49,328 bases of DNA, from the IMG/VR virus record IMGVR_UViG_2778261065_000024, positions 1 through 49,328 of that record; one strand, 5' to 3'. Under the pieces are notes generated by a model that did not search any database, was not told the origin of the DNA, and saw only the letters and a program-made list of their open reading frames with translations. The position numbers were made by a program, and so were the translations under genes. Below, piece by piece: positions 5,133 to 49,328 of this stretch; the first letter of the stretch is position 1; every line of letters starts with the position of its first letter. This DNA is from a virus. Lineage: Duplodnaviria; Heunggongvirae; Uroviricota; Caudoviricetes.

Positions 5133-5986
5133 GCACCATCCTGAAATGGGCGGGAAATAAAACCGCCATTATGTCCGAACTGAAAAAACACCTTCCTGCT
5201 GGCCCGCGACTGGTTGAACCTTTCGCGGGTTCCTGTGCTGTGATGATGGAGACGGATTACCCCAGCTATCTGGTTGCGGATATTAATCCTGATTTAATCA
5301 ACCTCTATAAAAAGGTTGCCGCTGATTGTGAATCGTTTATATCTCGCGCCAGAGTTTTATTTGAGATCGCAAACAGGGAGGTGGCTTATTACAACATAAG
5401 GCAGGAGTTTAATTACTCCACTGAAATTACTGATTTCATGAAAGCGGTATATTTCCTGTATCTCAATCGTCACGGTTACCGTGGTTTATGTCGCTATAAC
5501 AAGAGCGGGCATTTCAACATTCCCTACGGTAATTATAAAAATCCGTATTTCCCTGAAAAAGAAATTCGCGCATTTGCAGAAAAAGCCCAGCGGGCAACGT
5601 TTATCTGCGCCAGCTTTGATGAAACGCTGGCGATGTTGAAGGCGGGGGATGTGGTGTATTGCGATCCGCCGTATGACGGCACGTTTTCCGGTTATCACAC
5701 TGACGGCTTCACTGAAGATGACCAGTATCACCTGGCATCCGTTCTTGAACATCGGTCATCAGAAGGACATCCGGTCATTGTTTCTAACAGTGACACATCC
5801 CTGATCCGTTCGCTGTATCGCAATTTTACTCACCACTACATCAAGGCAAAACGCAACATCGGTGTGGCAGCTGGCGAGGGTAAATCAGCAACAGAAATCA
5901 TTGCTGTTTCCGGGCCGCGCTGCTGGGTGGGATTTGATTATTCGCGTGGCGTGGACAGTTCTGCCGTGTACGGAGTACGTGCATGA
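5129..5986 (+). CDS. dam: DNA adenine methyltransferase (Dam-like, GATC N6-adenine MTase)
   Basis: N-terminal [16 protein letters not shown] (SAM-binding motif) and catalytic DPPY (VYCDPPYDG); overlaps neighbours as in an operon. Confidence 0.85.
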
Positions 5987-8397
5987 GTCATGCCGATATG
6001 AACAACTGCTGCGGCTTTAACGAGGCTACCGCAGCATTCTCATGGAACAGCCCGAAAAAGGCCATTAACCCTTATCTGGACCCGGCGGAAGTTGCGCCGG
6101 TTTCTGCGCTTTCAAACCTGATCACTCTGTACGCTGCCGATAACGAGCAGGAACAACTGCGCCGTGAGGCACTGAGTGATCAGGTCTGGGAGCGTTATTT
6201 CTTTAATGAATCCCGTGATCCTGTCCAGCGCGAAATGGAGCAGGATAAGCTAATTAGCCGGGCAAAGCTGGCGCATGAGCAGCAGCGTTTTAATCCAGAC
6301 ATGGTCATTCTGGCGGATGTCAACGCCCAGCCTTCCCATATCAGCAAGCCGCTGATGCAACGTATTAAATACTTCAGCAACCTGGGCAGGCCAAAGGCTT
6401 ATTCCCGCTATTTGCGTGAGACGATTAAGCCATGCTTGGAACGACTGGAGCATGTACGCGACAGCCAGCTATCTGCATCTTTTCGTTTTATGGCAAGCCA
6501 TGAAGGGCTGGACGGTCTGCTGATCCTGCCTGAAATGAGTCAGGATCAGGTGAAACGCCTGTCCACCCTTGTCGCTGCGCATATGAGCATGTGTCTTGAT
6601 GCCGCTTGTGGTGATTTGTACGCCTCCGATGATGTTAAGCCGGAAGAAATCCGCAAGACATGGGAAAAGGTGGCAGCAGAAACCCTGCGACTGGATGTCA
6701 TACCGCCTGCGTTTGAGCAACTCCGCCGGAAAAGAAACCGCCGCAAACCTGTGCCCTATGAACTCATTCCGGGTTCGCTGGCGCGTATGCTGTGCGCCGA
6801 CTGGTGGTATCGGAAATTATGGAAGATGCGTTGCGAATGGCGGGAAGAGCAGTTGCGTGCTGTCTGTCTGGTCAGCAAAAAAGCATCTCCCTATGTCAGC
6901 TATGAAGCCGTGATGCATAAACGTGAGCAGCGCCGTAAGTCGCTGGAGTTTTTCCGTTCTCATGAACTGGTGAACGAAGACGGCGACACGCTGGACATGG
7001 AGGATGTGGTAAACGCCAGCAGCAGCAACCCTGCGCATCGCCGCAATGAGATGATGGCCTGTGTTAAAGGCCTGGAGCTTATCGCGGAAATACGCGGTGA
7101 CTGCGCCGTTTTCTACACCATCACCTGTCCGTCACGTTTCCATTCCACGCTAAATAACGGCAGGCCCAACCCGACCTGGACAAATGCGACGGTAAGACAA
7201 AGCAGTGATTATCTGGTTGGCATGTTTGCTGCATTTCGTAAGGCGATGCACAAAGCCGGATTGCGCTGGTATGGCGTGCGGGTGGCTGAGCCGCATCATG
7301 ACGGTACAGTTCACTGGCACCTGTTGTGTTTTATGCGCAAAAAAGATCGCCGCGCCATTACTGCTTTGTTGCGTAAGTTTGCCATTCGTGAAGACCGCGA
7401 GGAGCTGGGGAATAACACGGGACCACGCTTTAAGTCTGAGTTGATTAACCCGCGCAAAGGAACGCCGACAAGCTACATCGCGAAATATATCAGTAAGAAC
7501 ATTGACGGGCGTGGTCTGGCTGGCGAGATCAGCAAGGAAACGGGTAAATCCCTGCGTGATAACGCTGAATACGTGAATGCCTGGGCGTCTCTGCATCGTG
7601 TTCAGCAATTCCGCTTCTTTGGCATTCCGGGGCGTCAGGCTTACCGTGAACTGCGATTGCTGGCTGGTCAGGCGGCAAGGCAACAGGGTGACAAAAAAGC
7701 AGGTGCGCCGGTACTGGATAACCCGCGCCTTGATGCAATCCTGGCTGCTGCTGATGCTGGTTGTTTTGCCACCTACATCATGAAGCAGGGCGGCGTACTG
7801 GTTCCCCGTAAATATCACCTCATCAGAACCGCTTATGAAATCAACGAAGAGCCAACCGCCTATGGCGATCACGGTATTCGTATTTATGGCATCTGGTCAC
7901 CCATTGCAGAGGGCAAGATCTGCACTCATGCAGTGAAGTGGAAAATGGTTCGTAAGGCCGTTGACATTCAGGAGGCGGCAGCCGACCAGGGCGCTTGCGC
8001 CCCTTGGACTCGTGGCAATAACTGTCCCCTTGCTGAAAATTTGAACCAACAGGAGAAAGATAAATCAGCTGATGGGGGCCCCAGAACGGACTTTACCCGC
8101 ATGGATGACAAGGAGTTGCACGATTACCTGCACAGTATGAACAAAAAGGGGCGCCGGGAACTGGCTGCAAGGTTACGTCTGGTGAAACCGAAACGGCGTA
8201 GAGACTACAAACAGCGAATTACAGACCATCAACGACAGCAGCTCGTCTATGAACTGAAATCCAGAGGATTTGATGGCAGCGAGAAAGAGGTCGATTTACT
8301 CCTTCGCGGCGGCAGTATTCCGTCAGGAGCAGGCCTGCGTATCTTCTATCGGAACCAGCGTTTGCAGGAAGATGATAAGTGGCGGAACCTGTATTAA
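5983..8397 (+). CDS. A: replication initiation endonuclease gpA (rolling-circle)
   Basis: 804 aa; conserved block shared with the second copy at 41425-44247 ([36 protein letters not shown]); position after the early genes. Confidence 0.9.
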
Positions 8398-8467
8398 TTA
8401 CGCTGGTTAACAATTCGTGCTCTTAATAATACCAGGCATATCAGGCTGATAAGCGTAAAAAAAACGT

Positions 8468-8510
8468 TTTACATCAGTAAGATTATTATATACTGTAAAT
8501 ATAAACAGTG
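8468..8510 (+). promoter_or_regulatory. SOS-regulated promoter: TTTACA -35, TATACT -10, overlapping LexA box TACTGTAAATATAAACAGTG (8491-8510)
   Basis: CTGT-N8-ACAG core (CTGT 8493-8496, ACAG 8505-8508), close to the LexA consensus TACTGTATATATATACAGTA, 40 bp upstream of the 8552 ORF. Confidence 0.6.
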
Positions 8511-8551
8511 GTTATACATACAGCATTGCGTGTGGTGTCATAGGAGGAAAG

Positions 8552-8740
8552 ATGCAGGACTATTTTTTGGAGTCTTTGAAGCTCCAGCGCATTGATTTTT
8601 TTCTTAAGCTTGTAGCGGCTAGTGAGTGTAGTGATGAAGAGAAGGGGCTGGCTCTGCAGTGGGTTTCTGAATTGACTGATGAACTCATGGCAAAAATCAG
8701 AAGCCACGAATACAACCGCTCAATGGATGTCATCAGCTGA
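8552..8740 (+). CDS. small protein (62 aa), possibly a Tum-like antirepressor N-terminal module
   Basis: ATG preceded by TAGGAGGAAAG; downstream of the LexA box; followed 10 bp later by a DinI-like gene. Confidence 0.45.
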   Translation: MQDYFLESLKLQRIDFFLKLVAASECSDEEKGLALQWVSELTDELMAKIRSHEYNRSMDVIS

Positions 8741-8750
8741 GGTGACTTTT

Positions 8751-8984
8751 ATGCGCATTGAAATAATGATCGATAAAGAGCAGAAGATTAGCCAGTCTAC
8801 CCTGGACGCCCTTGAATCCGAGCTTTACCGCAATCTGCGCCCCCTGTATCCCAAAACGGTAATCCGTATCCGTAAAGGTAGCTCTAACGGTGTGGAACTG
8901 ACCGGACTGCAACTGGACGAAGAAAGAAAACAAGTGATGAAAATTATGCAGAAGGTGTGGGAAGACGACAGCTGGCTGTATTGA
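8751..8984 (+). CDS. DinI-family protein
   Basis: 77 aa MRIEIMIDK....TVIRIRKGSSNGVELTGLQLDEERKQVMKIMQKVWEDDSW, resembling the DinI family fold; GAGGTG RBS. Confidence 0.75.
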   Translation: MRIEIMIDKEQKISQSTLDALESELYRNLRPLYPKTVIRIRKGSSNGVELTGLQLDEERKQVMKIMQKVWEDDSWLY

Positions 8985-9097
8985 TTTTGTCAATAGACGC
9001 TTGTTTTTACTAATCAAAAAGGGTTACATATGAGTGAGAGGCGATGTCAATCAGATATCGCCTTGTTTTTTGTCAAGAAAAGAATAATAGGCTAAAA

Positions 9098-9775
9098 ATG
9101 AAAATTAATAATGTAGCGTTACCAATATCTCTTGCTGTAATCCTAACTGGTTGCGTGCCACATGCTTCTAACCGAAATATCACTGCTATTGAAGTGGTGA
9201 AGCCTGCTATTGGGCAAAGTGCTACCGCCTACATGGGCGATCCCATTATCACATCTGCTACTGGATTTAAAACGGACGTACTAGAACTTGGTGCGGCTAA
9301 TGGTGCATTGTCTTCTATCGCTGCTGGTACATATTGCAGTGAGGGGAATGGAATTTACCGCAATTATCATAACCCTCAAGCTGTTGCGTTAAAAAATCTC
9401 TATGGGCAAATCGGTAACTATGTTGATTATGTTAGTTACGATGCTGCAAAAAATGAGATATCACCGCCAAATGGTACTTCTTATACTGCATCAGAAATTT
9501 CTATCAAACGTGTTCCTGATGGGCTGTGTCGAGTTAGTAACTCATTGGTTAAGACTATCGAATACAATGGAAATGCAGGCGGTGTAATGAAGTTCACCTA
9601 TCGTGAATTTGCAAACGATATGGCTCGTGCAGCATTTACAACAGATTTTTCTGTAGATTCTAAGGGAAGTGACGTTATCGCTTACAAAGGTGCCAAGTTC
9701 AAAGTGAACAAGGCTGATAACTCGTCTATTTCTTATACAATTATTTCTGGCTTTGACAAGGCTGTCACGTTCTAG
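9098..9775 (+). CDS. putative lipoprotein (cargo gene; function unknown)
   Basis: N-terminus MKINNVALPISLAVILTGC with lipobox LTGC; alternative start at 9044 with GAGAGG RBS; moderately AT-rich; lies between A and the packaging genes. Confidence 0.7.
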   Translation: MKINNVALPISLAVILTGCVPHASNRNITAIEVVKPAIGQSATAYMGDPIITSATGFKTDVLELGAANGALSSIAAGTYCSEGNGIYRNYHNPQAVALKNLYGQIGNYVDYVSYDAAKNEISPPNGTSYTASEISIKRVPDGLCRVSNSLVKTIEYNGNAGGVMKFTYREFANDMARAAFTTDFSVDSKGSDVIAYKGAKFKVNKADNSSISYTIISGFDKAVTF

Positions 9776-9879
9776 GTTTCACGCTTACTGAGTATGTTAC
9801 GATTTTGCACATTCTGCATAAGCGCGCATGTCTATGCTGCATGAGATCGCATGATCGTTTGAGGATCTTTTGTGTTAAG

Positions 9880-9904
9880 GCCCGCCAGTTCTGGCGGGCT
9901 TTTG
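9880..9904 (+). terminator. rho-independent terminator candidate downstream of the lipoprotein gene
   Basis: GCCCGCCAG-tt-CTGGCGGGC hairpin followed by TTTTG. Confidence 0.5.
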
Positions 9905-9948
9905 CGTAGATCATGCAGGTGCATGAAAACCACTACATAAAGCGGGCA

Positions 9949-9967
9949 GGCGTGGCGGGGATACGAG
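9949..9967 (+). other. candidate cos (cohesive end) site of the 186-like prophage
   Basis: GGCGTGGCGGGGATACGAG resembles the P2 cos cohesive end GGCGAGGCGGGGAAAGCAC as I recall it; correct strand relative to Q; the recalled sequence is not verified. Confidence 0.3.
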
Positions 9968-10077
9968 CGCGCGCTCATGGTTGAATTAATGAAATTATGG
10001 TGTTAAATAGGCTAGCTTTTTAAGTCGTGAATATTCAATTTTTCAACTCATTTTTTTCATAGGGAGGAGTAATTGAC

Positions 10078-10776
10078 ATGGTTATGTTAGTGGATGACTG
10101 TCCACGATGTGGATCACAAAAAATAGCGTTTGATGTTAATGGGCTGAATTGCACTAGGGTTTACAATGCATTGGGCGGGGGTAAAACATACGAGTACGAG
10201 GTCTATTGTGTTTGCCGAGAGTGTCATAAAACGACAATGTTTCTTTGCAGACCTTTAACGAAAAATAAAACTTTAGATGGCTATAATTGGGAAAGTGGAA
10301 TATTCGGCTTAAAGGAAGTTGCAGAGGTTGTTAGGCCTATATCACCGGCAGACTTAGCAGTAGAGGAGCCACCAGAGTTCTTACCTGAGCATATCAATAG
10401 TGCATATGAGGAAGGGGCGAAATGTTTGGCTATAGGTTGTTATAATGCAGCAGCAACCATGTTTAGGCTTTGCCTTGATTATGCCACAAAAGGACTTCTT
10501 CCTGATGGGGAGCAAGGGCCTGCGCAAAAAATAAGGAGAAGCCTAGGGTTAAGAATGGAGTGGTTATTTGATAATCATCTACTGCCTGAAGCTTTAAGGG
10601 AACTAGCTGAATGCGTTAAAGATGACGGAAATGATGGAGCGCATGAAGGTATTTTGGATAAAGCTGCTGCTGAGGATCTTGAAGATTTTACCTATCTTTT
10701 TTTAGAACGGCTTTACACTGAACCTCAACGCCTTATCGAAGCCAAGACAAGGCGTGAACAAAGAAGAAACAAATAA
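10078..10776 (+). CDS. zinc-ribbon protein with DUF4145-like C-terminal domain (cargo gene, candidate defence)
   Basis: 232 aa; strong RBS AGGGAGGAG; N-terminal CPRCG...CVCRECH (C4 zinc ribbon); C-terminal VKDDGNDGAHEG resembles the GN..AH signature I associate with DUF4145; sits between candidate cos and the Q stop. Confidence 0.75.
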   Translation: MVMLVDDCPRCGSQKIAFDVNGLNCTRVYNALGGGKTYEYEVYCVCRECHKTTMFLCRPLTKNKTLDGYNWESGIFGLKEVAEVVRPISPADLAVEEPPEFLPEHINSAYEEGAKCLAIGCYNAAATMFRLCLDYATKGLLPDGEQGPAQKIRRSLGLRMEWLFDNHLLPEALRELAECVKDDGNDGAHEGILDKAAAEDLEDFTYLFLERLYTEPQRLIEAKTRREQRRNK

Positions 10777-10784
10777 GTTCGGAA

Positions 10785-11822
10785 TTATTCTTCTGAAAGA
10801 ATATAGGGCGTAAATTTAATCACTTCTTCGCCCAGCCAGTCGTTCAGCTCTTGTAGCCTTTTTTGCAAGGGAGTTAATTCATTACGTACAAATACGCGAC
10901 TGGCCTTCTCCACATCCCCAAACCCTCCAACATTATTAGGCATAATCCCCATCATTTGCGGCGGCACGCGGTGCGCAGCCATCATGTCGTCGCGGCTGAC
11001 ATTTTTGATATTCAAAAACTCATCCTTCGCCGCGACTTCTGACAATGGGATGATCTGAAGCCCGTCTTTTTTGCCGTTAGGCGAGTACATAAACAGGTTG
11101 CGGAAGTTGCCTGGACCTTTGGCGCTTTTCATCGCATTGCGGAGGTTGTTCACATCCTCCTGGTTTTGCGCGGCATCGGTCATGTACATGATAAAGCCCG
11201 CATGACTGCCGTTAATGTAATACTTGCGACGGAACAGCGTGGCGGACTCGTTGAGCAGGGCTGACGGAATGGCAGAAAGATAACCGGGCAGGCCGTAGAT
11301 CTCCTGATTAATATCCGGTTCCATCAGATGAAAAATGCTGCCTTTCGTGAACTGATACGGCTGGGTTGTCATACCGTATTGCACAAACCAGTAGGTATCC
11401 AGGTCTAACCCGCGTCGGGTGTATTTTGCCAGTGCAGGCTCAAGGGCGATAACTTCACCGAAGCGGTTCGTGCGTTTCTCCAGGTAGGCGTTACCAAAAA
11501 CCAGATAGTCCTGCACAAAACGCGAAAAAGCCTGCTGGCTGAGCAGCGGGTGAGGGATGTAGGTGCTGGTCAGAATGTTGCACTTTACTGCAATCGGGGA
11601 ACTATGATGCACGGCAGCGCGGAAGGTGCGCGCCAGTCCGTCAAAGCTGACGGGCGGCTCATACCAGCGGTCCATCTGTACGCATTCCACATAATCCAGC
11701 AGTTCTCGGCGGTCCAGAACAGGAACGGGATCGCCGAAGCTGAATGCTTCGGCTGTAGTTTGACTTTTAAGCTGGATCTGTTTCGTCGCCGCAGCGCGGT
11801 TCTTCTTACTCTTTCCCATCAA
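10785..11822 (-). CDS. Q: portal protein gpQ
   Basis: 345 aa; P2 Q-like length and position; paralogous to the 36740-37786 copy (HRVPPQMMG, GDVEKA). Confidence 0.9.
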   Translation of the reverse strand: MMGKSKKNRAAATKQIQLKSQTTAEAFSFGDPVPVLDRRELLDYVECVQMDRWYEPPVSFDGLARTFRAAVHHSSPIAVKCNILTSTYIPHPLLSQQAFSRFVQDYLVFGNAYLEKRTNRFGEVIALEPALAKYTRRGLDLDTYWFVQYGMTTQPYQFTKGSIFHLMEPDINQEIYGLPGYLSAIPSALLNESATLFRRKYYINGSHAGFIMYMTDAAQNQEDVNNLRNAMKSAKGPGNFRNLFMYSPNGKKDGLQIIPLSEVAAKDEFLNIKNVSRDDMMAAHRVPPQMMGIMPNNVGGFGDVEKASRVFVRNELTPLQKRLQELNDWLGEEVIKFTPYILSEE

Positions 11823-23662: not shown

Positions 23663-24106
23663 ATGAACGAATATGTTTATAGCGCAAGGCATAATGCTTT
23701 TTTCCCTGTGGATATGATTGATAAATATAAATCAGAGGGATGGGATTTATCAGATGCAAAGGAGGTGAATCAAAATATTATCAGTGAGTTTATGGCTGAA
23801 CCGCCACAAGGAAAAATCCGTATTGCCGGAGATGATGGGCTGCCTGCGTGGGCAGATATTCCTCTACCCACGCATGAAGAGCTTATTGAAATTACTGAAT
23901 CAGAAAGACAGCTACTAATTAACCAGGCCAACGAATACATGAACAGTAAGCAATGGCCCGGTAAAGCCGCTATTGGTCGTCTGAAAGGTGAGGAACTGGC
24001 GCAATATAATTTGTGGCTGGATTATCTGGATGCACTGGAGCTGGTTGATACCTCCAGTGCACCAGATATTGAATGGCCTACGCCTCCAGCAGTACAGGCC
24101 AGATGA
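23663..24106 (+). CDS. G: tail fibre assembly protein gpG
   Basis: Follows H; C-terminal ...SAPDIEWPTPP resembles the C-terminus of the convergent paralogue; ORF opens with GTG at 23654. Confidence 0.75.
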   Translation: MNEYVYSARHNAFFPVDMIDKYKSEGWDLSDAKEVNQNIISEFMAEPPQGKIRIAGDDGLPAWADIPLPTHEELIEITESERQLLINQANEYMNSKQWPGKAAIGRLKGEELAQYNLWLDYLDALELVDTSSAPDIEWPTPPAVQAR

Positions 24107-37786: not shown

Positions 37787-37803
37787 CGCGCTTCGCTTGT
37801 CTG

Positions 37804-37846
37804 CTGCTTCGCCGGGGCATAAAAAATTTATGCCCCGGCGAAGCAG
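37804..37846. terminator. perfect 20-bp inverted repeat with 3-nt spacer downstream of Q (terminator-like or structural site)
   Basis: CTGCTTCGCCGGGGCATAAA-aaa-TTTATGCCCCGGCGAAGCAG. Confidence 0.5.
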
Positions 37847-38097
37847 CTCCTGTATCAGTCAGATAATTTCACGACGCTTTCCTGCTGATTGCCATCATCG
37901 ACAGTCAGACTCTTACGCAATTCCACCGCGTTGACTGCATGTTTTCGCCGTCTCAGTGCGATTTTGACGGCCTTACCTTTCACCCCATCAAATCAAAAGC
38001 CCTCACGTCTTTTTCACGCTCAGCGTGAGAAATACAGCCATTCTGTTGTATCTCTGCGACATCGTTCAGGGAATGCTATTTACCCCCTGAAACGCGG

Positions 38098-38121
38098 GCT
38101 GTTCCCCCGTCACCTGCGCGC
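38098..38121 (-). other. possible cos-like element of the second segment (very tentative)
   Basis: gctgttcccccgtcacctgcgcgc loosely resembles the reverse complement of the candidate cos at 9949-9967. Confidence 0.2.
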
Positions 38122-38210
38122 AGAAAAAACGCGTTTTTTTGTGCACGCACGGATCCCTGACGGATCCAGCCGCCACGCGGGCCGGAAGGGCAAAAAGTCG
38201 TTCAAAAAAA

Positions 38211-38240
38211 TTGTGCAAATTTGTGCACTATTGTGCAACA
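38211..38240. repeat. three tandem 10-bp repeats TTGTGCA(aat/cta/aca)
   Basis: ttgtgcaaat ttgtgcacta ttgtgcaaca, helical-turn periodicity, in the Q / cargo intergenic region. Confidence 0.6.
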
Positions 38241-38263
38241 GAGAAAGAAGGCCAGGAAGAAAG

Positions 38264-38290
38264 AAAAGCCGCCTTTAAAAGGCAGCTTTT
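38264..38290 (-). terminator. rho-independent terminator candidate for the cargo operon
   Basis: Imperfect hairpin AGCCGCCTTT/AAAGGCAGCT followed on the minus strand by a T-rich run; just downstream of the toxin gene stop. Confidence 0.45.
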
Positions 38291-38328
38291 CAGATTAGTA
38301 AGGGATTGATAGATAGTCGTCGCAAAAC

Positions 38329-38709
38329 TCAAAAAGAAGACTGGAACTCTTCTGCTCTGCGCTCAATTTCTGCCATGTAGGATGTACGGGCTAACTCATG
38401 CGCATTGGGTGTCATAATGCTGATTAGCTGATACTTATCTGGATATAAGAAATGGCGGGAGTAAACAAGATAACTGTTTGATTTACGCGAGGCGGCAGGT
38501 AGCTTTGCAGGCCACGGCTGTTCATCAGGTAAACGAATGTGAATCTTAAAAACAAAAGAATCACGAAGACGCCCGCTATCTTCCCACTGCCCTTCGTTGC
38601 CAAAGACTGAGGGTAAAGATCCGCCGTTTTTCCATGACTGCAAAGCATGTGCATATTTACGAGCAACTGCGGGGAGTTCTATGTCATTGTGGACAGAGAC
38701 TTTAATCAT
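38329..38709 (-). CDS. YafO-family toxin (ribosome-dependent mRNA interferase family)
   Basis: 126 aa; blocks GSLPSVFGNEGQWEDS, FKIHI, SYLVYSRHF..YQLISIMTPNAHELAR..MAEIERRAEEF align with E. coli YafO as I recall it. Confidence 0.75.
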   Translation of the reverse strand: MIKVSVHNDIELPAVARKYAHALQSWKNGGSLPSVFGNEGQWEDSGRLRDSFVFKIHIRLPDEQPWPAKLPAASRKSNSYLVYSRHFLYPDKYQLISIMTPNAHELARTSYMAEIERRAEEFQSSF

Positions 38710-38718
38710 GGCCCTGCC

Positions 38719-39312
38719 TTAATGGAACGTTGGATCTTCAAGGCCCAGCTTTTTATGTTCACTGCGGATAAGTGCGTGAACCTGATCGGCGGTAACACCC
38801 AGATCAGCATCTGAAGTTTTCTTCGGCACATGCGTGCTTTCAATGAAGGATAAAATATCTTCAATCGTATAGCGAAGCGTCGCAGCGGAACGAGCAAAAG
38901 CGACAATCTCTTTTCTCAGTTCCGCGTTACTTTCAGGTACGCTTTTCAGCGCAACCTTTGCAGCCTCGACAAAACTTGCACATACCGCAATATGACGGAA
39001 AAGGCTTTCAAACCCTTCCTGAGTCTCTTTTTTCTGATTTTTCAGAATAATAGGGAGCTGCTTTTCTTCCCATTCGATGCGAAGGTTTGCCCTGTGTGTC
39101 TTCATCCTATCAGCCAGGTTAAGCATATAACTGGTGGCCTCATCAATAGGAAGGTATGCCACAGAATCCTTTACGTCCTGGAGGGATAGCGTAGACGTAC
39201 TGTGCCGGGAGATTGATAAGTCATGATGCACAATGCTACTGGCAGGAACAGGGGCGAGAGCCACCGCCAGCGCTGCGGCCATAGATGTTATTTTATTTTT
39301 TTTACTGCTCAT
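38719..39312 (-). CDS. hypothetical protein with signal-peptide-like N-terminus, co-oriented 10 bp upstream of the YafO-family toxin
   Basis: ATG at 39312 after AGGAAAGG; N-terminus MSSKKNKITSMAAALAVALAPVPASS; ORF opens at 39363; unlike YafN. Confidence 0.6.
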   Translation of the reverse strand: MSSKKNKITSMAAALAVALAPVPASSIVHHDLSISRHSTSTLSLQDVKDSVAYLPIDEATSYMLNLADRMKTHRANLRIEWEEKQLPIILKNQKKETQEGFESLFRHIAVCASFVEAAKVALKSVPESNAELRKEIVAFARSAATLRYTIEDILSFIESTHVPKKTSDADLGVTADQVHALIRSEHKKLGLEDPTFH

Positions 39313-39484
39313 AATTGCCTTTCCTGCCAATAATCGTGAACCACTGCCGGAATGATAGCGCAAAAAATCACCCGCTGAAACGAATTATCCTTGCGGCAAA
39401 ACTAGCCCGCGTCAACCTCATACCACGCCAGCGTCGATTGATAGTTTTGTGCCGCCTCGCGTAATGCCTGATAGTCAATCTTGC

Positions 39485-40012
39485 TCACTGGTTGCCTCCT
39501 TTGCGGAGTAGCGCCAGCTCTTCCTGCGCCTGCATCATGCGATTGACCTGAACGCGTGTGCGTCGAACGGCAAAATTAAATTGAAACATGAGCCGGAACA
39601 TTTCTGAGGCTTCCGTGTGAACATCATGGAGAGGTGACAGGCGGTACAGTTCTGCCTCCGTAGCTTGTTGAATCAATGACAGATCAAATTGAAGTGCGGG
39701 TCTGGTACATTTTGCACATCTGGCAGCAAGCTCCGGCATCAGTTTCTTAACGAAGGTGTTTTGCACCGCTTTGTTGAGTTGTGTCTGCATCCAAATCGCA
39801 AATTTCAGCGAACGCATAAATTTGATAGCCTCGGGCAGCGGCAGATAGATCATGCTAGTAGATTTGGGTGGTTGGTGAATCATCTTCACGGATACGCGAT
39901 TTCGCAGCGTTCGGAAAATCGTGTTCCCAACAACAGCTTCTACGGATACAGGACAGGGAGCCAGACCAGCCCGCAGTGCTTCTTTCATTAGCATGTATTC
40001 GTATTTTTTCAT
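39485..40012 (-). CDS. hypothetical protein (175 aa) downstream of parR
   Basis: ORF co-oriented with parMR; no recognisable motifs. Confidence 0.55.
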   Translation of the reverse strand: MKKYEYMLMKEALRAGLAPCPVSVEAVVGNTIFRTLRNRVSVKMIHQPPKSTSMIYLPLPEAIKFMRSLKFAIWMQTQLNKAVQNTFVKKLMPELAARCAKCTRPALQFDLSLIQQATEAELYRLSPLHDVHTEASEMFRLMFQFNFAVRRTRVQVNRMMQAQEELALLRKGGNQ

Positions 40013-40072
40013 TGTGTTTTCCTCGTGCGGGGCGACAGTGCGCCCCGATAAAATTAAAAGCCGTCAAATTCG

Positions 40073-40384
40073 TCATTCAGGAAATAATGCCCGGATATTC
40101 CCTGCCATCTGGCTGGTTATCTGTGCGGTTGGTGCTGTCTGTGACGCGAGGCGTTCTGTCCTGGTTTGTGTCACTGATAACGCCTCATCGTCAGCCCATG
40201 CGGCCAGTCGGTAAGCCTCTGCCGGATTCATTTTCAGAAGTGCCAGCCCGGCCAGAAAAGCCATGCGTTGGACGCTTTTGCGGGCTTCTGGTGTAAGGCT
40301 GTCCAGCCAGGCGCATGCTTCGCCTTCGTTCTTGACGGCGGCGGGCTTCAGATAGAAACTTATCCGTCTGGTTGGTGTCGTCAT
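40073..40384 (-). CDS. parR: ParR/StbB-like centromere-binding partition protein
   Basis: 103 aa; ISFYLKPAAV...LDSLTPEARKSVQRMAFLAGLAL resembles R1 ParR; immediately downstream of parM. Confidence 0.7.
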   Translation of the reverse strand: MTTPTRRISFYLKPAAVKNEGEACAWLDSLTPEARKSVQRMAFLAGLALLKMNPAEAYRLAAWADDEALSVTQTRTERLASQTAPTAQITSQMAGNIRALFPE

Positions 40385-40388
40385 TGGT

Positions 40389-41348
40389 TTACTCCTTGTT
40401 CATTGCGTACAGCCCATTAACCAGAGCAAACTGTGGCACCCCGTCCGCGATGAAAGTCGCATTAACTCCGCAGGCTTCGCGGATAGCGGGTGCCACAATC
40501 TCCGCTCCTCCACCGACAACCATCACCCGCCCGTAACCGGAAAAACCCGCCAGCACGCGGATCACACGTTGTTTCAGTGTTTCTTCCTTTTCACGAATAA
40601 CCGCCACCAGGCTGGCGTAATGCGCGTCATTGTGGATGTGCTGGCGCAGCCAGGCTTCATCATGGCGATGTTCGATAATGGTATTGGCGATGTGGTGACT
40701 GGTACGCATACCGTTAGTGGCCATCACCGACAGTACGGCATCGGCCATCAGGGAAACGCCTACGTGTGGATCGCAAAACACCTGGCTGATACCTGCCAGT
40801 TGTCCCTGAACCTTTGCCACATCCAGCGTGGTTCCGCCTAAATCCACAATCAGCAGGGATTCAAACGGACTCATGTCAGCCAGTGCTTTAAAACCAGCCG
40901 GAATGGATTCAGGCATAACCCGTACGTTACGGATAGTGAATGCTTTTCCGTTCTGGTATTCCACCGGGCGCATGACGTTTGCTTTTTTGCGGTTGATGTT
41001 GGCCATGTCCGGCTGTGCGTTTGTGTCGAAATACTCGCTCAGTGGCAGGGTGACAACCACATCCACCTCCTGTGGTGTGATGCCTGATTTGACCAGCGCG
41101 TGATGAATGGCAATGACATTCACATCGCTGTACTGGTATTGCGTGTCGGTCGTCTGGACAAAGCGATCGCTGACCGGATCAAAACCATAGCGCACGCCAT
41201 CAAGCATGTAGTTCGCGGGCTGCGTGCCACCGAACGGCGCAGACCATTCCGACTTGAAGCTGTTCGGGCTGATAGCGTTGCGGCGTTCGCCGTTCTCAGT
41301 CCATGCCAGCTTGATGTTGGTGGAGCCGTCGTCGATACAAATTTTCAT
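40389..41348 (-). CDS. parM: ParM/StbA actin-like partition ATPase
   Basis: 319 aa; MKICIDDGSTNIKLAW, SPNSFK, YSDVNVIAIHHAL, VMPESIPAGF, LIVDLGGTTLDV, VMVVGGGAEI match ParM/StbA conserved blocks. Confidence 0.9.
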   Translation of the reverse strand: MKICIDDGSTNIKLAWTENGERRNAISPNSFKSEWSAPFGGTQPANYMLDGVRYGFDPVSDRFVQTTDTQYQYSDVNVIAIHHALVKSGITPQEVDVVVTLPLSEYFDTNAQPDMANINRKKANVMRPVEYQNGKAFTIRNVRVMPESIPAGFKALADMSPFESLLIVDLGGTTLDVAKVQGQLAGISQVFCDPHVGVSLMADAVLSVMATNGMRTSHHIANTIIEHRHDEAWLRQHIHNDAHYASLVAVIREKEETLKQRVIRVLAGFSGYGRVMVVGGGAEIVAPAIREACGVNATFIADGVPQFALVNGLYAMNKE

Positions 41349-41379
41349 GTCGCTTTTCCTTATGTTGATTAATTAATCG

Positions 41380-41492
41380 TTTACGGGATTCTGAAATCCC
41401 GTTTTTGCCTGTTTTGTGCGCGCTTCATATATCGCTGCGCGTTTTTTGGTCATTTACGGGATTCGTGAGTCCCGTTTCTGTCTGTTTTTTGT
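41380..41492. repeat. two about 40-bp direct repeats, each with a palindromic core (ACGGGATTC..AATCCCGT), upstream of parM; candidate parC-like site
   Basis: tttacgggattctgaaatcccgtttttgcctgttttgtg (41380-41418) and tttacgggattcgtgagtcccgtttctgtctgttttttgt (41453-41492); the second lies within the 3' end of the A ORF. Confidence 0.5.
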
Positions 41493-48272: not shown

Positions 48273-48338
48273 CCCTTTATTATTCTTACGTTTTACAAAC
48301 TGGAAATGTCTTTCCTCGTTTCACCGGAGGGCTTGCCA

Positions 48339-49328
48339 ATGGCAATTAAAGCGCTCGATGGTGGACGGTATAAAGTGGATGTTAGACCGCGTGGCCGAAG
48401 TGGACGTCGGATTCAGCGGATTTTTAAGAAAAAGGCAGATGCAGTGGCCTTTGAGCGTTATGTTCTCAGCCACATGCACGATAAGGAATGGCTTGAAAAG
48501 CCAACAGAGCAACGTCATCTCTCAGATCTGCTTCCGTTATGGTGGGAATTGGGTGGACGCAATAAGCCATATGCTAACGGCGTTCTAACCAGGTTGAAAA
48601 AAATCATCAAAGAAATGAATGATCCAAGGGTTAGCCAGATTAATGCTCGTTTCATGGCCGCTTATCGAAGCTCCCGTTTATCCTTGGGAGTAAAAGAGTC
48701 TACTGTTCGGCGTGATGAGTCGGATCTCGGAGGAATGTTTACACTCCTGGCAAATGCCGGGGAATTTCACGGAGAAAATCCGCTCCGCGCCCTCCCCTCT
48801 TTGAAACGAAAATCACCCGAAATGACGTATCTCACCACGGAAGAAATCGCCAAATTACTGGATGCAGTAAGCGGTGATGCCCGGCGGATTACGCTACTTT
48901 GTCTCAGTACTGGGGCGAGATGGGGAGAAGCGAAAAATCTGCGCGCGGAACACATCATCAATAATCGCGTGACGTTTAACAAAACTAAAAACGGAAAAGT
49001 TCGAATTATTCCTGTCTCTGATGAAGTTGTTAGTGAGATCAAAACAAAGAAATCCGGCCTTTTGTTTGACGTCAATTATGAGGAATATCGCAAGGTGCTT
49101 CGCAGTGTTAAGCCAGACCTACCAAAAGGACAGGCTGTACATGTTCTACGCCATACCTTTGCTGCTCACTTTATGATTAATGGAGGAAATATACTTACGC
49201 TCCAGCGAATTATGGGGCACGCCACGATCCAGCAAACTATGACCTATGCGCACCTCGCTCCTGATTTCCTCCAGGATGCAATTTCACTTAATCCGTTAAA
49301 AGGAGGCATCCACATTTCATCCACATAA
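48339..49328 (+). CDS. int: tyrosine integrase, P2 family (second segment)
   Basis: MAIKALDGGRYKVDVRPRGRSGRRIQRIF N-terminus like P2 Int; C-terminal HVLRHTFAAHFMINGGNILTLQRIMGH; ORF opens at 48306; TAA at the window end. Confidence 0.9.
   Translation: MAIKALDGGRYKVDVRPRGRSGRRIQRIFKKKADAVAFERYVLSHMHDKEWLEKPTEQRHLSDLLPLWWELGGRNKPYANGVLTRLKKIIKEMNDPRVSQINARFMAAYRSSRLSLGVKESTVRRDESDLGGMFTLLANAGEFHGENPLRALPSLKRKSPEMTYLTTEEIAKLLDAVSGDARRITLLCLSTGARWGEAKNLRAEHIINNRVTFNKTKNGKVRIIPVSDEVVSEIKTKKSGLLFDVNYEEYRKVLRSVKPDLPKGQAVHVLRHTFAAHFMINGGNILTLQRIMGHATIQQTMTYAHLAPDFLQDAISLNPLKGGIHISST

Follow-up and report, generated by a model that had tools for sequence, protein, structure and literature searches.

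The closest described relative of the gene examined here is RAZR (ring-activated zinc-finger RNase), the name given in 2026 to PD-T7-4, or "Zn finger-HEPN" (PMC13017515). RAZR from E. coli UMB1727, reported earlier by Vassallo et al. 2022 (PMC9519451) and then by Zhang et al. Nature 2026 (PDB 9Y9C/9Y6U; PMC13017515), is a single-gene abortive-infection protein of 219 amino acids (aa) with an N-terminal Cys4 zinc ribbon, called the zinc-finger domain or ZFD, together with a DUF4145/HEPN domain at the C terminus, in which R146 and H154 are essential and the R146A substitution abolishes function (PMC13017515). Alone, the protein is non-toxic even when over-produced and forms inactive linear oligomers, while 12 of its dimers assemble as a 24-mer around ~170 Å phage rings and then cleave RNA (ssRNA) non-specifically; the trigger rings are the portals of T7, T3 and SECphi18 or the Erf-like Gp77 of SECphi27, and specificity is set by the ZFD (PMC13017515). 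Fusions of DUF4145 to zinc ribbons, together with restriction-modification and abortive-infection contexts, had been noted by Anantharaman et al. 2013 in a purely computational study that gave the fusion no function or trigger (PMC3710099). To this background we compare an open reading frame (ORF) at 10078-10776 on the + strand of a 49,328-nt stretch of a Caudoviricetes virus (IMG/VR record IMGVR_UViG_2778261065_000024, positions 1 to 49,328; hereafter the window), which lies between the cohesive end (cos) and the portal gene of a P2-like prophage. This ORF, referred to as the DUF4145 gene, probably represents a stand-alone anti-phage gene of the zinc-finger-HEPN type, belonging to a sister family of RAZR and expressed constitutively from the repressed prophage.

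The DUF4145 gene is a real, conserved gene. It opens with an ATG whose Met column is shared by all homologues and encodes 232 aa, and a Shine-Dalgarno sequence, GGAGG, read directly at 10063-10067 (+), lies 10 nt 5' of the ATG, in agreement with a first-pass annotation of the window that had described a 232-aa ORF with a strong ribosome-binding site. An identical gene is gp01 of Escherichia phage Cartapus (NC_070909, Peduoviridae), a P2-like prophage of E. coli LF82, in which it is LF82_788, with WP_000245245 as the accession of the LF82 and MFDS1019527 protein. One copy per genome was found in 46 of 5,426 complete E. coli genomes, and clustering of the homologues gave 603 groups at 90% identity and 927 groups when the threshold was 50%.

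The protein begins with MVMLVDDCPRCG and divides into four parts. Residues 1-56 (10078-10245) form an N-terminal Cys4 zinc ribbon, the presumed sensor, of the pattern C8-x2-C11...C46-x2-C49 with CVCRECH as its second knuckle; all four Cys are invariant in two independent alignments of 28 and 37 family members and are kept in 227-237 of 244 relatives, and the L33 and RPA12 zinc-ribbon profiles match the region weakly, below significance. A hypervariable spacer follows at residues 57-95 (10246-10362; mean column conservation 0.27, 44-77% identity among E. coli alleles), and then a conserved Pro-rich linker at residues 96-110 (10363-10407), whose PPEFLPEHI is aligned to PNPDMPDDC of the RAZR linker by hhalign and HMMER. 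The remainder is helical, contains ECVKDDGNDGAHEG and carries a DUF4145-type HEPN domain at residues 111-215 (10408-10722), delimited by profile alignments and by a match to Pfam PF13643 over residues 114-203 (30.3 bits, where the gathering cut-off is 23.1, with E = 4.5e-7 and coverage of positions 4-82 of the 88 in the profile), a score that makes the protein a member of the DUF4145 HEPN family; a search of NCBIfam gave no match. The predicted active-site motif, K181-DDGNDGA-H189 (10618-10644), aligns with R146-IVGNQAV-H154 of RAZR in profile and BLASTP alignments and contains the GN..AH signature as G184-N185-D-G-A188-H189, which is near-invariant in relatives (H189 in 240 and N185 in 236 of the 244). 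The first-pass annotation had pointed to both the C4 ribbon and a DUF4145 domain with this signature, and both were borne out; the HMM comparison it proposed, against PF13643 and defence profiles, gave the Pfam match and further returned a PADLOC match to PD-T7-4.

PD-T7-4 (PDLC04109) was the only meaningful PADLOC family (E = 1.2e-6, 26.1 bits, profile positions 39-165 of 211), and of 52 divergent relatives of the protein, 40 likewise matched its profile (best E = 3.4e-11). A profile built from these 52 relatives matched PDB chain 9y9c_OA at E = 5.6e-6 and was the only query to reach RAZR, as PDB searches with phmmer and with a close-relative profile retrieved no RAZR chain. The RAZR sequence was taken from this PDB alignment, and the chain was identified as RAZR-Ec because V21, R29, Y31, R35, T41, E43, A68-G69-N70, R146, H154, D179, D180 and R184 all fit the numbering of the paper. 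Direct comparison of the two proteins by BLASTP gave 26% identity over 136 aa (E = 8e-6), and hhalign gave a probability of 97.4% (E = 9.7e-12), or 97.1% (E = 7.6e-11) with larger local alignments. The region matched, residues 98-222 against RAZR 74-191, comprises the linker and the HEPN domain, with E112-E88, R130-R105, K181-R146, G184-G149, N185-N150 and H189-H154 among the aligned pairs. Both proteins are encoded by single genes of ~220-230 aa, carry a C-x2-C...C-x2-C ribbon, a Pro-rich linker and a C-terminal DUF4145-type HEPN domain with a basic-x7-His motif and an internal GN in the same register, vary most in the N-terminal domain, and are carried by mobile elements with no partner gene.

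The two families nevertheless differ in several respects. The knuckles of the ribbon are 34 residues apart in the DUF4145 protein and 29 in RAZR, ~27 extra hypervariable residues separate its ribbon from its linker, and the RAZR oligomerization residues D179/D180/R184 correspond to E210/R211/E215, which are charged and conserved with another charge pattern. Reciprocal family HMMs gave cross-family scores of no more than 27 bits, although 117 of 117 RAZR proteins were matched, and the genomic address is also distinct, the P2 cos-portal slot for the DUF4145 gene against a position that "often overlaps an integrase gene" for RAZR. By sequence comparison, the DUF4145 proteins thus group as a sister family of RAZR and not as members of it. 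A comparable case is DS-38, a validated HEPN and zinc-finger defence protein from an E. coli collection (DefensePredictor preprint, 10.1101/2025.01.08.631726), which aligns to PD-T7-4 over the HEPN domain only, just as the DUF4145 protein is related to RAZR; DS-38 could be a member of the present family, one of its lambdoid relatives of the POCJ13-gp20 type, or a member of some other family.

Variation within the DUF4145 family was strongly polarized along the protein. Identity among the E. coli alleles was 44-80% in ribbon and spacer and 82-96% in the HEPN domain, family-wide column conservation was 0.46 and 0.27 in the N-terminal regions and 0.65 in the HEPN domain (0.54 vs 0.92 in RAZR), and dN among the E. 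coli alleles was 3-6x higher in the N-terminal part, a gradient that fits the pattern of a variable sensor joined to a constant effector. No positive selection on the sensor region was demonstrable, because synonymous sites were saturated and dN/dS was < 1 in both regions.

The assignment of cos was confirmed by alignment. A P2-type 19-nt cohesive end, GGCGTGGCGGGGATACGAG, lies at 9949-9967 (+) within a wider stretch, 9917-9981, that aligns to the P2 cos junction with 50 of 65 identities (E = 7e-10); the Cartapus record begins at the equivalent of position 9917, and the same stretch is annotated there as putative cos. The gene order is gpA (5983-8397), cos, the DUF4145 gene starting 110 bp to the right of cos, and the convergent portal gene (gpQ, 10785-11819, -), which forms the right boundary of the cargo slot and whose stop is 8 bp from that of the DUF4145 gene. 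The gap from cos to the Q stop thus measures 817 bp here and 167 bp in P2, where the interval holds only the tQ terminator; the first-pass annotation was right in placing the ORF between cos and the Q stop and had underestimated the P2 gap at about 100 bp. The GC content is 0.418 for the DUF4145 gene and 0.416 for the cargo region 8398-10784, compared with 0.51-0.57 for gpA, portal and terminase.

The interval has been described in print as a hotspot of defence genes. In 18,150 gpA-gpQ cos-proximal loci, Rousset et al. 2022 recorded 1,650 arrangements (PMC9122126), Vassallo et al. 2022 named the same interval "P2 defence hotspot #1" (PMC9519451), and a 2026 NAR survey includes it too (PMC13586616). 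Its cargo includes P2 old and tin, which are non-essential, expressed from the prophage and exclude other phages (PMC9122126; PMC9519451); they share the hotspot with the DUF4145 gene, but are unrelated proteins and lie to the left of cos, whereas the DUF4145 gene lies to the right, against the portal gene. DUF4145 genes, WP_000245245 among them, are listed for the hotspot in Table S5A of Rousset et al. (PMC9122126), and we found no sign of the DUF4145 gene among the hotspot systems that were cloned and tested. In our own comparison, more than 1,280 E. coli genomes matched 8398-9974 and most parted ways directly after cos, while a query in which the left flank (ending at 9975) ran straight into the right flank (beginning at 10785) retrieved prophages that keep both flanks around 0.6-2.1 kb of differing DNA. 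The annotated contents assigned to the slot in these siblings, with placement inferred from flank composition, were AIPR, TIR, SEFIR, PIN, DUF262, DUF262 with HEPN, HIRAN, STAS-like, DUF6953 and RNA-binding-domain proteins as well as hypotheticals, and a 463-aa hypothetical was confirmed directly in the cos-portal slot of E. coli HS (L003, 5664-7055). Several of these slot genes are not recognized defence systems and could be further candidates. The DUF4145 gene, situated in the gpA-portal interval beside cos at a site of variable content, is cargo of this hotspot, in keeping with the accessory-gene site between A and Q described in the first-pass annotation.

The same annotation had called the gene a recent cargo insertion, and of this only the cargo status, supported by the varying slot content of prophages with the same flanks, held up. 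In all six contexts examined (the window, RM10740, MFDS1019527, L3_E36, E7476 and E41), the gene adjoins the 3' end of the portal gene at 3-8 bp, with alleles ranging from 100% to 69% nucleotide identity, and synonymous divergence between the E. coli alleles is saturated (dS > 1.5). Because alleles of 100-69% identity occupy an identical position and synonymous divergence is saturated, the DUF4145 gene is an old, stably placed cargo of one P2-like phage lineage, and a recent insertion is unsupported. Its divergence tracks that of the portal gene more closely than that of the terminase (nucleotide identities for DUF4145 gene/adjacent portal of 81/81, 74/81 and 69/79%), while the DNA to the left of cos varies: the window has a lipoprotein-like 243-aa ORF there, LF82 has two small ORFs, L3_E36 has DUF2971, E7476 has two hypotheticals, and E41 has nothing. 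In MFDS1019527, a frameshifted IS21 copy (istA/istB; L009, 2390-4353) sits between cos and the DUF4145 gene of an otherwise identical prophage and puts ~2 kb between cos and the portal side.

To assess expression, we turned to published RNA-seq of the LF82 lysogen, in which LF82_788 is listed as CARTA_1 at the LF82 coordinates of the DUF4145 gene (Misson et al. 2023, S1 Table; PMC9928086). In overnight LB culture, CARTA_1 reached 25.6 normalized counts, 3.7x the prophage median background of 6.9, compared with 33.0 for the CI repressor and ~5-8 for gpA, portal, terminase and capsid (PMC9928086). On a log2 scale, CARTA_1 rose from 4.7 in LB to 7.0-7.6 in DMEM and 9.2-9.6 in macrophages, with CI climbing in parallel, while gpA, portal, terminase and capsid stayed at 2.3-3.1 in every condition (PMC9928086), so that gpA, portal and terminase remained at the floor in five of five conditions. 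Because CARTA_1 is transcribed while lytic genes lie at the floor, the repressed prophage expresses the DUF4145 gene, and does so without dependence on the lytic operons. CARTA_1 falls just below the 5x cut-off of Misson et al. for "morons" and for that reason is absent from their moron list, which has two Cartapus entries but, with LF82_789, only the neighbour of CARTA_1. The AT-rich region at 9968-10077 (+) is presumed to contain the promoter of the gene. No terminator hairpin was detected in the 8 bp between the convergent stops (10777-10784), where P2 has tQ, and because of this short gap without a hairpin, transcription of the DUF4145 gene or of the portal gene may run antisense into the other.

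Beyond P2-like phages, the family showed no conserved partner gene. Across 80 species-level loci from many phyla, a P2 portal was adjacent in only five, the 303 nearest-neighbour proteins fell into 286 clusters, and only the P2 portal and terminase recurred; this clustering also ruled out a recurrent same-strand upstream ORF that had been considered as a partner in the non-P2 loci. The neighbours include some defence and mobile-element genes (TIR, type I/II methyltransferases, GajB, mad2, RmrA, integrase core and DDE transposases) along with housekeeping genes, and lend weak support to a defence role. Relatives of the DUF4145 gene occupy moron or accessory positions in other phages: a remote homologue in Stx phage POCJ13 stands between a RelE/ParE pair and a Ren-like exclusion gene, and another adjoins the cohesive end of Gordonia phage Meyran as gene 1. 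The POCJ13 relative (L006, 4001-4714, opposite strand) is a ~25% identical zinc-ribbon-HEPN protein with a canonical R-x7-H motif, for which RefSeq and PHROGs give the unsupported label "DNA binding protein". A similar gene is present in a phage from ECOR13, which makes this relative a possible identity of DS-38.

A different assignment would give the product a role in the phage cycle at or close to cos, for instance as a zinc-finger factor in DNA binding, packaging or late transcription. Zinc-finger activators are in use among P2-family phages (Ogr), the DUF4145 protein has a zinc ribbon, its PHROG, phrog_1305, is labelled "DNA binding protein", and the gene adjoins cos and packaging genes much as gene 1 of Meyran does. 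Against this, most prophages with the same flanks lack the DUF4145 gene and have unrelated genes instead, P2 has nothing there, the gene is transcribed in a lysogen whose early and late lytic genes stay silent, conservation within the protein is highest at the HEPN active-site motif, and the PHROG label seemingly derives from an unreferenced annotation; we regard a phage-cycle role as highly improbable. Scarcely better placed is the proposal that the protein does not sense phages but is a HEPN toxin whose toxin-antitoxin or addiction module stabilizes the prophage. Many HEPN proteins are toxins of such modules (PMC3710099), and toxin-antitoxin genes are common hotspot cargo, as with YafO in the second element of the window and RelE/ParE beside the POCJ13 homologue. 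A toxin, however, would call for an antitoxin, and no conserved adjacent candidate emerged from the neighbour clustering, the left neighbours vary by E. coli strain, no MNT partner is present, and RAZR, the closest relative, is harmless alone even at high levels. Equally doubtful is a lysogenic-conversion gene serving host physiology (stress, macrophage survival) or counter-defence instead of abortive infection. Moron functions are diverse, and the transcript rises ~30-fold from LB to the intramacrophage state of LF82, but this regulation is not specific to the gene, because CI and all other cos-flanking cargo rise in parallel; moreover, the nearest characterized homologue acts in defence, and classic defence domains are among the alternative contents of the slot.

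The remaining alternatives concern the active site and the sensor. Of the R-x4-6(7)-H motif of HEPN domains, the His is present as H189, while the Arg position is occupied by K181, and Lys is found there throughout the close clade, which could mean an altered or inactive HEPN with a binding or regulatory role, perhaps that of a decoy or of a sensor with no RNase output, and the motif is conserved in only ~80% of DUF4145 domains (Anantharaman et al., PMC3710099). Across the 244 relatives, however, 157 have K and 72 have R at position 181, Arg is present in distant phage homologues (e.g. VRIDANKAVH, VRLDGNDALH), and K and R alternate inside a tight motif in which H189, N185 and G184 are near-invariant, as expected of a functional basic residue, whereas a decaying site would not remain invariant across phyla. 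We infer that K and R are interchangeable at this position, and an inactive domain appears unlikely, if less so than the roles discussed above. Only slightly less credible is an elaboration of the defence reading in which a portal- or ring-sensing RNase with a competent Lys-type HEPN is welded to its own portal gene, so that its sensor would tolerate the self P2-type ring and fire on rival rings; sensor and portal would then be passed on together and adapt to each other. This self versus non-self module comes into view because, in every E. coli or enterobacterial P2-like context seen, at 69-100% nucleotide identity, the gene sits directly against the portal stop, and because its divergence tracks the portal more closely than the terminase.

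Several observations weigh against an anti-phage gene of the RAZR type. The PD-T7-4 model gives genuine RAZR proteins 315-339 bits over positions 1-209, compared with the partial 26.1-bit match of the DUF4145 protein; hhalign with narrow family alignments returned a probability of only 7.6%, a value superseded by the more diverse alignments; the zinc-finger regions of the two proteins were aligned by no method; and the catalytic Arg of RAZR is Lys in the whole close clade. A single-sequence AlphaFold2 model of the protein was unusable (pLDDT 39.4, pTM 0.26), the scan for + strand sigma-70 consensus sequences between cos and the ATG was negative, the up-regulation of CARTA_1 in DMEM and macrophages might mean a role in host physiology, the neighbours outside P2-like phages are mixed, include housekeeping genes and come without a background control, and our literature search found no experiments, plaque data included, on this family.

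On balance, the DUF4145 gene is probably an anti-phage defence gene, judging from its homology, its context and one published transcriptome, in line with the candidate single-gene anti-phage system of the first-pass annotation, and a plausible single-gene abortive-infection system by analogy with RAZR; ring-templated activation in the RAZR manner is only about half as probable as the defence role itself. On that analogy, the zinc ribbon and spacer would bind a protein of an incoming phage, and the binding would rearrange the oligomer so that paired HEPN domains form a site from K181, N185 and H189. Non-specific RNA cutting would then halt translation, and no phage would be released from the infected cell, with protection of the lysogen population and of the prophage as the outcome. 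RNase activity with Lys in place of Arg, a phage trigger, oligomerization and a defence phenotype are thus what the comparison with RAZR would predict for this protein.

The left-of-cos part of the same hotspot (8552-9775, +) carries an ORF at 8552-8740 (phrog_698), a DinI-like gene at 8751-8984 and a 243-aa ORF at 9044-9775, followed by a G+C hairpin and T-run at 9877-9902 (+) that the terminator scan identified as a likely terminator of these left-hand cargo genes, upstream of cos. The 243-aa ORF has a lipoprotein-like signal (...AVILTGC...), falls into phrog_1353 (unknown function) and is matched by neither Pfam nor PADLOC; it is separate cargo, because other genes take its place in LF82, L3_E36, E7476 and E41. 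The phrog_698 ORF and the DinI-like gene lie beside gpA in more than 1,200 E. coli genomes, and their LF82 transcripts rise from log2 ~3-4.5 in LB to 9-11 in macrophages while gpA is silent (Misson et al. S1 Table).

The window as a whole consists of the integrase-to-tail-fibre arms of two different P2-like prophages, back to back, with a junction at ~24078-24106. Integrases stand at its ends (1534-2547, -; 48306-49328, +), two tail-fibre and assembly sets converge at ~24.1 kb, and both arms are without the tail sheath, tube, tape-measure, gpD and ogr genes, whereas the second phage is intact in the complete genome MFDS1022581, with an invertible tail-fibre cassette and its recombinase. The arrangement looks like either an assembly join or the product of an inversion or recombination in which two prophages exchanged across their homologous tail-fibre cassettes; if the arrangement is real, the prophage with the DUF4145 gene is defective here. 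The second element has its own gpA-portal cargo region (37800-41400) with quite different content, namely a YafO-family toxin (38329-38709, -), two unknown ORFs (214 and 175 aa), another ORF of 103 aa and a ParM-like actin segregation protein (40389-41348, -), which together with its partner suggests plasmid-like maintenance. No P2-type cos core was found in this region.

The newness of the DUF4145 gene is limited, because the fusion was noted in 2013, the hotspot was known, the gene had been catalogued, its closest relative is mechanistically solved and DS-38, perhaps of this family, has been validated; its location in particular was already on record, the cos-proximal hotspot of P2 being established and DUF4145 genes being catalogued there. 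Of moderate interest are the Lys-type site, the sensor region, which is distinct from that of RAZR and longer, and the unvarying position beside the phage's own portal gene, portals being RAZR triggers. If active, the family, with more than 900 clusters at 50% identity in many phyla, would widen the RAZR paradigm of assembly around a phage structure, and this branch would add a different sensor, a longer spacer and a Lys-type site, which would be useful for understanding trigger choice and the essentials of the HEPN motif. Activity would likewise supply a function for a gene that lacks annotation and is carried by ~1% of complete E. coli genomes, among them that of the Crohn's-associated strain LF82, in which it is strongly transcribed inside macrophages.

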